Assembly: GCA_019235245.1 (NCBI GenBank)
Contig: JAFAKO010000099.1
Span: 1 to 59,064 of the forward strand
Length of the DNA: 59,064 bases
DNA from: Gammaproteobacteria bacterium
GTDB taxonomy: Bacteria; Pseudomonadota; Gammaproteobacteria; Steroidobacterales; Steroidobacteraceae
Direction: 5' to 3'
Made by a program: the position numbers and the translations under genes. The notes beneath the pieces were generated by a model, which saw only the letters and a program-made list of their open reading frames with translations, was not told where the DNA came from and did no database searches. This document shows positions 13,588 through 38,979 of this stretch, one piece after another. Numbering within the stretch: position 1 is the first letter of the stretch; each line of letters starts with the position of its first letter.

Positions 13588-13896
13588 ATGGCCAATGAGT
13601 CTTCGCAACGTGGCGGCTCGGGCAACTTCGCCAACGACCCCGCTCGGGCGAGCGAGGCGGGCCGCAAGGGTGGCCAGCAGTCCGGCGGTAACTTCGCCAA
13701 CGACCCGCAGCGGGCGAGCGAGGCGGGCCGCAAGGGCGGTCAGCAGTCCGGTGGCAACTTCGCCAACGACCCGCAGCGTGCCAGCGAAGCCGGCCGCAAG
13801 GGCGGTCAGCAGTCCGGTGGCAATTTCGCCAACGACCCGCAGCGCGCCAGCGAAGCCGGCCGCAAGGGTGGAGCATCCCGGGGCGGCAATCGCTGA
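13588..13896 (+). CDS. KGG-repeat general stress protein (YciG-like)
   Basis: GGAGGTG RBS 5 nt upstream of ATG 13588. Four tandem 20-aa units GNFANDPxRASEAGRKGGQQSG. Confidence 0.85.
   Translation: MANESSQRGGSGNFANDPARASEAGRKGGQQSGGNFANDPQRASEAGRKGGQQSGGNFANDPQRASEAGRKGGQQSGGNFANDPQRASEAGRKGGASRGGNR
13621..13860 (+). repeat. four tandem 60-bp repeats inside the KGG-repeat gene
   Basis: Near-identical 60-bp units, differing mainly at synonymous positions. Confidence 0.9.
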
Positions 13897-25562: not shown

Positions 25563-26477
25563 CTAGGCTTGCTCATATACCTTGAGTCGGACGAGTACGG
25601 TCGCGAGGAGCGGGGTGGGCACGCCTCTCGCCGCCGCCCGCCTTACCAGATCGCCGACGATCTGGTCAGCCTCGATGCGGGCACCGGATTTCATGTCGCG
25701 GTACATCGAGGAGGTGAGACTCGAGCTGCGGTCCGTGAGCAACGCCAGCACCTGAGACTTGAACGGGTCGGCGAGTGGGCGCCACTCGGCGCCGACCGTG
25801 GCGGCGACCTCATCGAAGAGCCGACGCACGAAGTCCTCGCCTCCGGGTGCGCGCGCGACGCGGCCAATGTCACCATCCATCAGACAGGTGATGGCTCCGA
25901 GGCTCGCGAGCATCGCCCACTTCTCCCACATCTCCCGCTCGATCTCGGTCGATAAGCGCGCATCGAACCCGGCACCGCGCATGAACTGATCGAGCGCCAC
26001 GATGCGCTCGGAGCGCGCACCGTCCCATTCGCCGTAGGACAGGTCGTGAAAACTCGCCTGGTCCACGATCCGTCCCTGCTCATCGAGGCTCGTGGCGATG
26101 CGCGCCACCCCGCCCAGAACGCGCGGCGCGCCGAAACGGGATCGCAGTGCGTCCATGTGCTGCATGCCGTTCAGCACCGGGAAAATCATGGTGCGCTCCG
26201 TCACGCAGGGAGCGAAGTCGGCGATCGCGGCATCGAGCTGATACGCCTTGACCGCCAGCAGGATCACATCGAAATCACCCGCTCCGCGGCCCTGGCTGCT
26301 CAGGATGAGCTTCACCGGGATGGTGGTTTCACGACCGTGGCTGAGGATGGTGAGTCCACGCGTGAGCTGCGTGGCGCGGTGCGGGCGCACGAGAAAGCTG
26401 ACGTCCCGGCCCGCTGCGGCCAGCCGGGCGCCGAAGTAGCCGCCGACGCTGCCCGCTCCCACGATCAGGCCTCTCAT
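25563..26477 (-). CDS. panE: 2-dehydropantoate 2-reductase
   Basis: N-terminal GAGSVGGYFGARLA Rossmann motif. 304 aa, ApbA/PanE-like layout. Confidence 0.85.
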   Translation of the reverse strand: MRGLIVGAGSVGGYFGARLAAAGRDVSFLVRPHRATQLTRGLTILSHGRETTIPVKLILSSQGRGAGDFDVILLAVKAYQLDAAIADFAPCVTERTMIFPVLNGMQHMDALRSRFGAPRVLGGVARIATSLDEQGRIVDQASFHDLSYGEWDGARSERIVALDQFMRGAGFDARLSTEIEREMWEKWAMLASLGAITCLMDGDIGRVARAPGGEDFVRRLFDEVAATVGAEWRPLADPFKSQVLALLTDRSSSLTSSMYRDMKSGARIEADQIVGDLVRRAAARGVPTPLLATVLVRLKVYEQA

Positions 26478-26564
26478 ATCCGCTCCCCCCTATCCGGGCT
26501 GGATGTCGATTGTGGTTGTGTGGCAGTCGGGTGTCACTACACCCGGTGGGAGAGCCGTATGACC

Positions 26565-26716
26565 TCGTGCGCATGATCCCTGCGCATACCGCATGCGCAC
26601 CTCTCATGCGCATGACCCATGCGCACGACCCATGCGCACGACCCATGCGCATGCCTCATGCGCATTCCCCATGCGCATTCCCCATGCGCATCACCCCTCC
26701 GCACCCTTTCGGCACA
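26565..26716. repeat. tandem array of a 13-bp unit, consensus CATGCGCAYNNCC (10 in-register copies plus 2 decayed)
   Basis: TGCGCA occurs at 26568, 26581, 26594, 26607, 26620, 26633, 26646, 26659, 26672 and 26685, an exact 13-bp spacing. Located in the intergenic region between divergent genes. Confidence 0.95.
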
Positions 26717-26799
26717 TTCACCCCCCATTCACCTCGCGTATTGCATGGTTTACGTGTGCCGGGCAGAGTTCGATCTCGTTCCTCAGGAGGCGAAGCGCA

Positions 26800-27945
26800 A
26801 TGCTCAAGACAGCTGCTGCCACGTTGCTGATCGTGGCGTCGGTCACGTTCGGTGCCCTGTCCTTTCCGACCCCTGCGAGCGCGCAGATCGGCATCGGCTT
26901 CTCGATTACCTTCGCCCCGCCGCCTCTTCCGGTGTACGAGCAGCCGCCCATCCCGGCGCCGGGCTACATCTTCATACCGGGGTACTGGTATTACGGTCCG
27001 TACGGCTACTACTGGGTCCCGGGCACCTGGGTCGAGCCGCCTGAGGTGGGCCTGCTGTGGACGCCGGGCTACTGGGGCTGGTCGGACGGGTTCTTCGTCT
27101 GGAACGCGGGGTATTGGGCGCCGGAGGTCGGCTTCTACGGAGGGGTCGTCTACGGCTTCGGATACCCGGGACATGGGTACGAAGGCGGTGAATGGCGCGA
27201 GAACCGCTTCTGGTACAACCGCGAAGTCAACAACGTCACCAACGTGCACATCGAGAACGTCTATTCCAGAACGGTCGTCAACAACGTCACGGTGACCAAC
27301 ATCAGCTACGTGGGCGGCCCCGGCGGGCTGTCAGCGCAGCCGACGGCGCAGGAGCAGCGGGTGGCCCACCAGCACCACGTCGCAGCCACTCCCGCTCAAT
27401 TGCAGCATCGGGAGACCGCGGCCTCGCGACCGGAGCTCGTCGCCTCCATGAATCACGGCAAGCCCCCGATCGCCGCGACTTCGAAGCCCAACAATTTCCA
27501 GTCGCACGCGGTCGCCGCCACCCGGGCCGGCGGCCCGGTGATGGTGCATGCGACCGACCTGCCCAAGCCCGAGGCGCCGAGAGCCGAGACTCCACCGCAT
27601 GCAACGAACACTGCCGCGCCCAGACCCGCCGCGCCCCCGCCGGAAGCGGAATCCCAGCGGCAGCAGGCGGAGCTGCAGACGCGGCACAACCAGGAGCGTG
27701 AATCGCTCGCGCAGATGCAGGAGCGCGATCACGCCTACATGTCGCAGCAGAACGCCAATCAACGGCAGATGGCGACCATGGAGCACCAGCACCGTCAGCA
27801 GACTCAGTTCCTGGAGCAGCGTCAGGCGAACGAGATGCAGAACCTGCGCGCACCGCAGCCCCCCCATGCGGCGCCGCCGCCCCATGCCGCACCGCCGCAC
27901 GCGGCCCCGCCCGCTGCACCGCGAAACGAGCCGAACCGACACTAG
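26800..27945 (+). CDS. exported YXWGXW-repeat protein with Gln/His-rich coiled-coil-like and Pro/Ala-rich C-terminus
   Basis: AGGAGG RBS 9 nt upstream of ATG 26800. Signal peptide ..SFPTPASAQ. Repeated PGYWYYGPYGYYWVPGTW / PGYWGWSDGFFVWNAGYW. C-terminal PPHAAPPPHAAPPHAAPP. Confidence 0.8.
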   Translation: MLKTAAATLLIVASVTFGALSFPTPASAQIGIGFSITFAPPPLPVYEQPPIPAPGYIFIPGYWYYGPYGYYWVPGTWVEPPEVGLLWTPGYWGWSDGFFVWNAGYWAPEVGFYGGVVYGFGYPGHGYEGGEWRENRFWYNREVNNVTNVHIENVYSRTVVNNVTVTNISYVGGPGGLSAQPTAQEQRVAHQHHVAATPAQLQHRETAASRPELVASMNHGKPPIAATSKPNNFQSHAVAATRAGGPVMVHATDLPKPEAPRAETPPHATNTAAPRPAAPPPEAESQRQQAELQTRHNQERESLAQMQERDHAYMSQQNANQRQMATMEHQHRQQTQFLEQRQANEMQNLRAPQPPHAAPPPHAAPPHAAPPAAPRNEPNRH

Positions 27946-38605: not shown

Positions 38606-38747
38606 GACTCGCTTCCCCAAAGAAACATCCCTGCAATAAACCCGATACTTGTTCTTCTTCGATGTGTACAGAATAGACCAAGCGAGGGGCGCGCACCTCT
38701 TCCGCGTGACAGAGCCCGTGCATTGAACATATTCGGACGAGGAGATC

Positions 38748-38840
38748 GCACCGCGGCACCATCGCCCCACCATCGCCGCACTTTCGGCACACCTTCGGCG
38801 CACCATTGCCGCACCATTGCCGCACCATTGCGCACCCGTT
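38748..38840. repeat. tandem array with ~11-bp period, unit CACCATYGCCG (3 near-perfect plus about 5 degenerate copies)
   Basis: GCACCATTGCC at 38800, 38811 and 38822, and GCACCC at 38832. Degenerate units run from 38756 (CACCATCGCCC, CACCATCGCCG, CACTTTCGGCA, CACCTTCGGCG). Divergent intergenic region. Confidence 0.85.
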
Positions 38841-38979
38841 CCCTGCGCAGACCGTGAGCGCACGCACGCGGCTCATGCAAAAGCACCGGTCGTGGTCAAG
38901 GCGCTAATGCAAGATCCCCAGGGCCTGAATGAGGCTTTGTCCGACTGCACCGCGCACGAATTCCCGCTGAGATGGCTCC

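Follow-up and report, generated by a model that had tools for sequence, protein, structure and literature searches.

The array and its locus

The DNA analysed here, called the window below, is a 59,064-nucleotide stretch (contig JAFAKO010000099.1 of assembly GCA_019235245.1) from a gammaproteobacterium of the family Steroidobacteraceae, and it carries a tandem array of ten palindromic TGCGCA boxes in the intergenic region between panE and a divergently oriented gene for an exported protein with WXXGXW repeats. An initial annotation of this DNA had named these two neighbours, panE on the minus strand and an exported repeat gene on the plus strand from 26800, and both identities are borne out by Pfam. 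The locus comprises the following features:

25563-26477, minus strand: panE (ketopantoate reductase), the divergent neighbour (Pfam ApbA and ApbA_C)
26478-26565, no strand assigned: 88-bp lineage-specific segment from the panE start codon to the array (alignment with relatives)
26509-26537, minus strand: predicted sigma-70-like panE promoter GTGACA, 17 bp, CACAAT (from a consensus scan)
26566-26695, no strand assigned: TGCGCA array of ten head-to-tail 13-bp units C-A-TGCGCA-Y-N-H-C-C (hexamer invariant)
26696-26721, no strand assigned: ancestral flank CCTCCGCACCCTTTCGGCACATTCAC, initially taken for two decayed units (alignment with CGCCGCACCCGGCCGGCCC in the relative L121)
26741-26769, plus strand: core promoter of the WXXGXW gene, -35 TTGCAT (26741-26746), 17 bp, -10 CAGAGT (26764-26769) (conserved)
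26786-26802, plus strand: Shine-Dalgarno sequence AGGAGG and ATG start of the WXXGXW gene (sequence, orthologue conservation)
26800-27945, plus strand: WXXGXW-repeat exported protein gene (Pfam)

The hexamer TGCGCA starts at 26568, 26581, 26594, 26607, 26620, 26633, 26646, 26659, 26672 and 26685, an exact step of 13 bp, and the hexamers together span 26568-26690. Tandem Repeats Finder, run on the window, reported a period of 13 with 10.5 copies at 26559-26696, so the ten exactly spaced copies of the initial annotation are confirmed by both the positions and the program. The sequence CATGCGCA is found in eight of the ten units, and in five of the ten the palindrome is extended to ATGCGCAT; alignment of the units gave the same counts and the same linker sequences as those noted initially. 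The linkers vary and the hexamer does not, with no deviation across 60 hexamer positions. None of the 19 deviations from the unit consensus falls within the hexamer, and they are concentrated at three linker positions (P ~8e-6 under uniform placement, in a test picked post hoc, after the data had been seen). This is the one TGCGCA array with a 13-bp period in the 59-kb window, and runs of at least three boxes at periods 10-16 occurred in none of 30 first-order Markov resamples of the window. An Rfam search of the whole window gave no match. The array thus combines several 6-bp palindromic boxes with a regular spacing on the ~12-bp scale (13 bp) across 130 bp, as a ccd-type operator does.

The -35 TTGCAT and the -10 CA(G/C)AGT are invariant or near-invariant across four orthologous loci, and the predicted panE promoter is not conserved among relatives. 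The array is upstream of both core promoters and outside the -35/-10 spacer of the conserved one. The neighbours are metabolic or exported-protein genes and the locus is syntenic with chromosomal contigs of relatives, with no plasmid iteron or partition context. A coding repeat was rejected, given the 13-bp period and the conserved start of the downstream gene; the non-coding nature of the array, already proposed in the initial annotation, is borne out by the conservation of the downstream promoter, Shine-Dalgarno sequence and start codon in array-less orthologues. Sigma-54 or other promoter motifs within the array were considered and rejected on inspection by eye.

The same locus in relatives

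PanE homologues with source names come from Steroidobacteraceae or unclassified Gammaproteobacteria metagenome-assembled genomes (MAGs). An independent assembly (L119), with 99.7% identity across 5.2 kb, differs from the ten units of the window by a single linker substitution, a soil contig from JGI (L151) also has ten units, and a further contig (L120) is broken within the array. Copy number is therefore stable at 10 in the three complete-array assemblies of the population (window, L119, L151), all copy numbers resting on short-read assemblies that are often broken at such arrays. The copy-number variation among relatives that the initial annotation had proposed to look for is absent within this population and present between more distant lineages at other loci.

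In three relatives with 85% PanE identity (L121, L122, L123), the divergent panE/WXXGXW order is kept, the intergenic region measures 119 bp and the array is absent; it is also absent in L124 (83%) and L131 (81% PanE identity). The 119 bp of L121 align with the rightmost ~125 bp of the 322-bp intergenic region of the window. Because the array is missing from the orthologous intergenic region in relatives of 81-85% PanE identity, the alignments indicate that the 88-bp unique segment and the array were gained recently in the lineage of the window. BLAST matches of the 88-bp segment are confined to the same locus in L119, L120 and L151, and neither relatives nor other array loci contain anything corresponding to it. 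The two units initially described as decayed (TCCGCA at 26698 and GGCAC at 26711) proved to be ancestral flank instead, because the array-less 119 bp of L121 align to the right-hand ~125 bp of the window's intergenic region, where these letters pair with CCGCACCC...CGGC. Possibly, the ancestral flank CCGCACCC was the seed from which the array grew. A mobile-element origin was rejected, as the 88-bp left flank and the right flank match the same locus only and no termini common to orphan arrays were seen.

A family of arrays with a 13-bp period

Related arrays were sought in genomes, one per species, as three CATGCGCA with variable gaps (at least 118 loci), and in metagenomes as three ATGCGCAT boxes at 13 bp (at least 120 loci). 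The genome matches listed mostly have periods of 9, 12, 15 and 18 and come from many phyla; multiple-of-three periods of CATGCGCA repeats suggest coding repeats. For periods that are not multiples of three, the genome matches listed include at least 15 loci with period 13 vs 2-6 for each of the other periods between 10 and 19 and one for period 20. These 15 loci, again among the matches listed, are mostly from Steroidobacteraceae or gammaproteobacterial MAGs and have a conserved core with free linkers. The metagenome arrays listed contain 3-18 units. On viral contigs, the motif and three control palindromes all gave 0 matches, which makes that comparison uninformative.

Among the arrays listed, 45 adjoin ccdA, 54 are orphan (flanked on each side by at least 450 bp of sequence) and 44 are ambiguous owing to a contig end, so that about a third of them sit directly on promoters of CcdA-family antitoxins. 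Of those listed with at least seven boxes, 6 are ccdA-linked and 16 orphan. In ~900 kb of sequence flanking related loci, no second independent TGCGCA array was found and other short-period non-coding arrays were rare. The TGCGCA arrays are low-copy elements and not a family like the repetitive extragenic palindromic (REP) sequences, and the dispersed genome-wide repeat that the initial annotation had named as a possible outcome was not seen in these sequences. Short-read contigs often end within arrays (44 of 143 arrays touch a contig end or lie <450 bp from one), and array lengths in public assemblies may be truncated or collapsed. In practical terms, TGCGCA arrays break short-read assemblies.

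Boxes at ccdAB loci

At 29 of the metagenome loci among the matches listed, exactly three ATGCGCAT boxes, followed by CAAG or CAAT, cover the start codon of a small gene together with its -35 and -10. In this three-box class, viewed along the strand of the small gene, cTTGATGCGCAT provides the -35 TTGATG (cTTGATG), which is followed by a 17-bp spacer and then the -10, made of the last T of box 2 and the linker (TAnnnT, e.g. TAGAAT). The gene begins with ATGCGC-ATG and is often leaderless. In this class, of which L173, L161 and L174 are examples, box 1 is translated as Met-Arg-Met, and from the geometry a leaderless transcript starting at the second ATG would be expected. The small gene encodes CcdA (PF07362, E ~1e-28) and the next gene encodes CcdB (PF01845). 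A local CcdA hidden Markov model (HMM) also matches open reading frames (ORFs) beside long arrays of 7, 9, 9, 13 and 18 boxes, and at a genome locus (L023) with 6 boxes. For the CcdA subclade associated with long arrays, only two database members carry a source name, and both belong to Steroidobacteraceae.

The association was also found without use of the motif. Loci fetched by the CcdA protein alone all have TGCGCA boxes 13 bp apart upstream of ccdA: six boxes in three pairs in L254 and L255, and three boxes each in L257-L266 and L267-L276, that is, in all 20 contigs of two sets of ten encoding identical CcdA. In L254 and L255 (2840-3000), the pairs are 13 bp apart internally and are repeated every 51 bp, near four lattice steps, which suggests a higher-order repeat. 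The protein-fetched loci and L023 share one conserved native site in the chromosome, where ccdAB lies between a divergently oriented AraC/DJ-1 regulator gene and a downstream dimethylglycine-dehydrogenase-like gene. L254 and L122, the array-less panE orthologue at 85% PanE identity, belong to one assembly (ERZ27256510). Another Steroidobacteraceae ccdAB locus (L056) has ATGCGCAT boxes at 11-bp spacing. Overall, the native Steroidobacteraceae ccd operator has 3, 4, 6, 7, 9, 10, 13 or 18 boxes depending on the lineage, as grouped by flank clustering (L136, L146, L150, L152, L172, L197, L201, L204, L222, L224, L252, L023 and L257-L276). The array of the window therefore shares its box and its spacing with the upstream regions of ccdAB in its own family.

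Orphan arrays elsewhere

To compare the constraint on boxes and linkers, arrays were extended by position-neutral whole-unit similarity and the three anchor boxes of each array were excluded. In the 258 non-anchor units of orphan arrays, mismatches amount to 2.2% in TGCGCA, ~20-24% in the flanking A and T and 26% in the linkers (Fisher 9e-50). The ccdA-linked arrays have the same profile, with 2.0% mismatch in the hexamer vs 40% in the linkers. Orphan arrays are retained at orthologous sites where the flanks are 80-92% identical, with cores intact and copy number differing between orthologues.

Arrays of 6-10 boxes are found upstream of lexA in four genomes (L070, L141, L164 and L187, one of them named Steroidobacteraceae), with flanks 85-87% identical. 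These arrays lie ~90-190 bp upstream of lexA, beyond the lexA promoter and SOS boxes. Further conserved orphan arrays are located upstream of dapD, of a CDP-alcohol phosphatidyltransferase gene and of a small exported-protein gene. Others follow stop codons, 7 bp after uvrA and ~100 bp after topA, or lie in convergent gaps, 10 and 34 bp from the two stop codons. The neighbourhood of lexA, uvrA and topA is intriguing for the operator of a toxin-antitoxin (TA) system with a gyrase poison, the sample being small and the pattern having been noticed post hoc. Orphan arrays occur in divergent, tandem and convergent intergenic regions in roughly random proportions, counts that are indicative, as the crude gene caller missed some genes, including the WXXGXW gene. 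The shared promoter region, which the initial annotation had treated as the defining feature of the array, does not generalize to these loci.

Comparison with known systems

The closest described architecture is that of the F-plasmid ccd operator, which is 113 bp long and contains eight imperfect 6-bp palindromes (GTATAC) ~12 bp apart (PMC5389731). There, the CcdA2 dimer binds single sites weakly, and the CcdB2 dimer bridges CcdA2 dimers into a chain that spirals round the operator. The multiplicity of sites provides avidity and a digital switch set by the toxin:antitoxin ratio, with a switch point that moves when other DNA competes (PMC5389731). The array of the window resembles this operator in having many 6-bp palindromes on a regular 12-13-bp lattice over ~110-130 bp, whereas its box is TGCGCA and not GTATAC, perfect and not imperfect, and present ten times at 13 bp instead of eight times at ~12 bp. 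The chief difference is that the array of the window lies away from any ccdAB operon and overlaps no promoter. The suggestion in the initial annotation of an iterated operator for an oligomerizing DNA-binding protein is thus the best supported of its readings, given the same hexamer and 13-bp lattice at CcdA promoters and the F-plasmid paradigm.

Head-to-tail short sites along which ribbon-helix-helix dimers polymerize are also known from the omega repressor heptads of pSM19035 and from the ParR and ParG centromere repeats. In those systems, the sites precede the par, copy-control or partition operons that they regulate, whereas the array of the window has no par, copy-control or partition genes as neighbours. 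Antitoxins such as MqsA, HipB and HigA regulate genes beyond their own operons, and datA is a titration locus for DnaA. The array shares with these the concept of a TA complex at remote sites or of a multi-site sink for a regulator; they differ from it in having one or two palindromes or in involving proteins that are not toxin-antitoxin proteins. Like REP sequences and bacterial interspersed mosaic elements (BIMEs), the array is palindromic, intergenic, found at several loci and capable of forming hairpins, but REP/BIME elements are imperfect palindromes of 20-40 bp in hundreds of copies per genome, and the array consists of 6-8-bp palindromes in strict 13-bp tandem at low copy. With the contingency promoter repeats of pathogens, it shares a tandem repeat in a promoter region with copy number varying between lineages, but it is outside the -35/-10 spacer, stable in the population and made of non-identical units.

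To our knowledge, no expanded 10-box orphan operator for a CcdA-type system has been described. Literature searches returned no orphan ccd operators and no bacterial ATGCGCA(T) operators, an absence that is not proof of novelty, and a search for ATGCGCAT returned eukaryotic NRF1 papers and primer sequences only. The initial statement that no element with this unit had been described holds as far as this bacterial literature on ATGCGCAT is concerned; the architecture, however, is known from the ccd operator.

An orphan ccd-type operator as the preferred reading

We favour, at about even confidence, the reading that the array is an orphan, expanded ccd-type operator that would offer multiple docking sites to a CcdA2-CcdB2 chain whose ccdAB locus lies elsewhere in the chromosome. 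It is termed orphan because neither ccdA nor ccdB is present within the 59 kb. In this reading, and by analogy with the F plasmid, a CcdA dimer would contact each TGCGCA box through its N-terminal ribbon-helix-helix domain, and CcdB toxin dimers would link neighbouring CcdA dimers into a chain spiralling around the array DNA. The genome of the window would carry a ccdAB locus, the CcdA-CcdB complex would bind the array, and the array would in turn have a physiological effect. With ten boxes, it may be a stronger target than the native operators with 3-6 boxes in relatives, because affinity in the F ccd system comes from the number of sites. The array may sequester the complex as a decoy and so shift the toxin:antitoxin ratio at which ccdAB is switched off. 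Since the array overlaps no promoter and its ten boxes exceed the 3-6 of relatives, titration of the repressor would be the likeliest effect. A secondary possibility is that the panE and WXXGXW promoters would be made responsive to the toxin:antitoxin ratio.

Several observations weigh against this reading. An iterated HMM search (E<=10) detected no CcdA-like ORF in the 59-kb window, and the array is not located at a ccdAB promoter, where an autoregulatory operator would be expected. It overlaps neither promoter of its own locus, lying 31 bp from the predicted panE -35 and ~50 bp (45-50) from the WXXGXW -35 TTGCAT, and at the orthologous loci the promoters work in the absence of an array. Some orphan arrays follow the stop codons of uvrA and topA or lie in convergent gaps, positions that a hairpin or terminator fits equally. 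Both collection scans were conditioned on the motif, so their counts describe arrays of this box and not its enrichment over arbitrary 13-bp repeats. The similarity between this CcdA clade and F-plasmid CcdA is weak (PDB phmmer E=0.12), and F CcdA is itself of low sequence specificity (PMC5389731).

A wider proposal, which we regard as unlikely at present, is that in Steroidobacteraceae the CcdA-CcdB repressor chain has come to act in trans, and that orphan arrays maintained by selection would titrate the TA switch or control neighbouring genes, possibly lexA. The sites concerned would be those upstream of lexA in the four genomes, next to uvrA, topA, dapD and pssA, and between panE and the exported-protein operon. 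If this were true, the variation in box number (3-18 at the native operator) would give evolution a means of adjusting avidity, and any neighbouring genes so controlled would respond to the balance between a gyrase poison and its antidote. Type II TA complexes are generally treated as regulators of their own operons, and ccd is the textbook case of many weak cooperating sites. If there are conserved arrays of such sites away from the operon, some exceeding the native operator in box number, competition for the repressor should follow and shift the ratio at which toxin is released. A shift of the switch point by non-specific DNA is already predicted by the published ccd model (PMC5389731). The question thereby made testable is whether operator copy number, in cis and in trans, sets the switch point of a TA system, and whether TA regulons exist. 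In addition, for a large and uncharacterised clade of environmental CcdA proteins, the analysis predicts TGCGCA as the recognition box and 13 bp as the lattice.

Alternative explanations

The array might be a functionless by-product, either of expansion by replication slippage or of leftover ccd operator sequence, with the core kept by a mutational or gene-conversion bias of palindromes. This is an explanation that we consider improbable but take seriously. It agrees with the recent gain of the array, which is absent at 81-85% PanE identity from loci whose promoters work without it, with the possible seed CCGCACCC in the ancestral flank, and with a second, unrelated 11-bp array 12 kb away that also arose from a local seed. 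The drift of copy number between lineages and the roughly random orientation of the gaps that hold orphan arrays (by crude gene calls) point the same way. However, the constraint is specific to the hexamer, at 2% vs 26% mismatch in the 258 non-anchor orphan units and likewise in the array of the window, and arrays persist orthologously across 8-20% flank divergence with their cores intact. Other short-period non-coding arrays are rare in the same sequences, young slippage arrays have uniform whole units, and beside the array there is neither room for nor, by iterated HMM search (E<=10), any trace of ccdA or ccdB remnants. Another functional reading, an iterated array for a different DNA-binding protein of the lineage whose box the CcdA operators share or mimic, seems rather unlikely to us. 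The window is without ccdAB, and the native boxes lie between ccdA and a divergent AraC/DJ-1-type regulator gene, the product of which could in principle be the binder. In the three-box class, though, the gene upstream differs from locus to locus and the boxes extend over the promoter and start codon of ccdA itself; across two divergent subclades, ccdA alone consistently accompanies the boxes, and both CcdA subclades have the N-terminal strand motif (K/R)R-x-(V/T)-N-(L/V)-(S/T).

Structure could also be the selected property. Adjacent palindromes would pair into a hairpin or cruciform, with stems of 6-8 bp formed by the core and loops of 5-7 nt formed by the linkers, in RNA or single-stranded DNA, in a REP-like use as terminator, RNA stabilizer, roadblock or recombination-prone structure. 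The array does fold far better than shuffled sequences (RNA -69.6 kcal/mol, z = -8.1; DNA -49.6 kcal/mol, z = -9.2), contigs often break inside arrays, and the related arrays after the uvrA and topA stop codons and in convergent gaps are placed as terminators might be. Yet strong folding is automatic in any tandem palindrome, and the array of the window is upstream of both core promoters, so its transcription is unsupported. Pairing needs complementarity only, whereas all units keep one hexamer, and the constraint peaks on the inner 6 bp and not on the whole 8-bp stem. Boxes at ccdA genes coincide with the -35, the -10 and the start codon, as expected of an operator, and the low density of arrays, with no further independent one in the ~900 kb of flanks, is unlike REP families. 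Taken together, we judge a purely structural role improbable. Far less credible still is the contingency promoter spacer put forward in the initial annotation, in which phase-variable gain and loss of units would switch panE or the WXXGXW operon. In its favour, the divergent intergenic region holds a tandem repeat, and lineages differ in the number of units at related loci (4 vs 5, 6-10 and 3-18). But the array is upstream of the -35 and outside the spacer of the conserved promoter, ten units are present in all three complete assemblies of the same population, the twenty contigs with identical CcdA (two sets of ten) all have 3 boxes, and variable linkers speak against rapid slippage turnover.

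Other repeats in the window

A second array lies 12 kb from the first:

38740-38862, no strand assigned: intergenic array with an 11-bp unit (CGCCGCACCAT) in ~8 copies and, at its end, the boxes TGCGCA, TGCGCA and AGCGCA at 38829, 38844 and 38857

It is located between a small minus-strand gene and a lipase-like lipoprotein gene and is an insertion relative to L121 at ttcgg|caccgg. In the relatives L210 and L228, the same intergenic region holds five ATGCGCAT boxes at 13 bp. The right flank of the first array, TTCGGCACATTCACC (window 26706-26720), is near-identical to TTCGGCAACATTCACC beside the site orthologous to the second array in L228 (~770-790), and CTTTCGGCACA (window 38783-38793) is common to both arrays of the window. 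The resemblance among TTCGGCACATTCACC, TTCGGCAACATTCACC and CTTTCGGCACA may be due to chance or to a small shared motif.

Tandem repeats were also observed within coding regions. The 3' part of the WXXGXW gene (window 27848-27922; L124 1334-1417; L131 7158-7236) is Pro/Ala-rich with short in-frame tandem repeats, of 15-18 bp in the window vs 21 bp in the orthologues, so that the length of this tail varies between lineages. At 13621-13868, the window has a 66-bp tandem repeat with 3.8 copies and 92% matches. Read in frame, it would give 22-residue repeats (GNFANDPQRASEAGRKGGQQSG) that, by our own reading, resemble the KGG stress-protein repeat.

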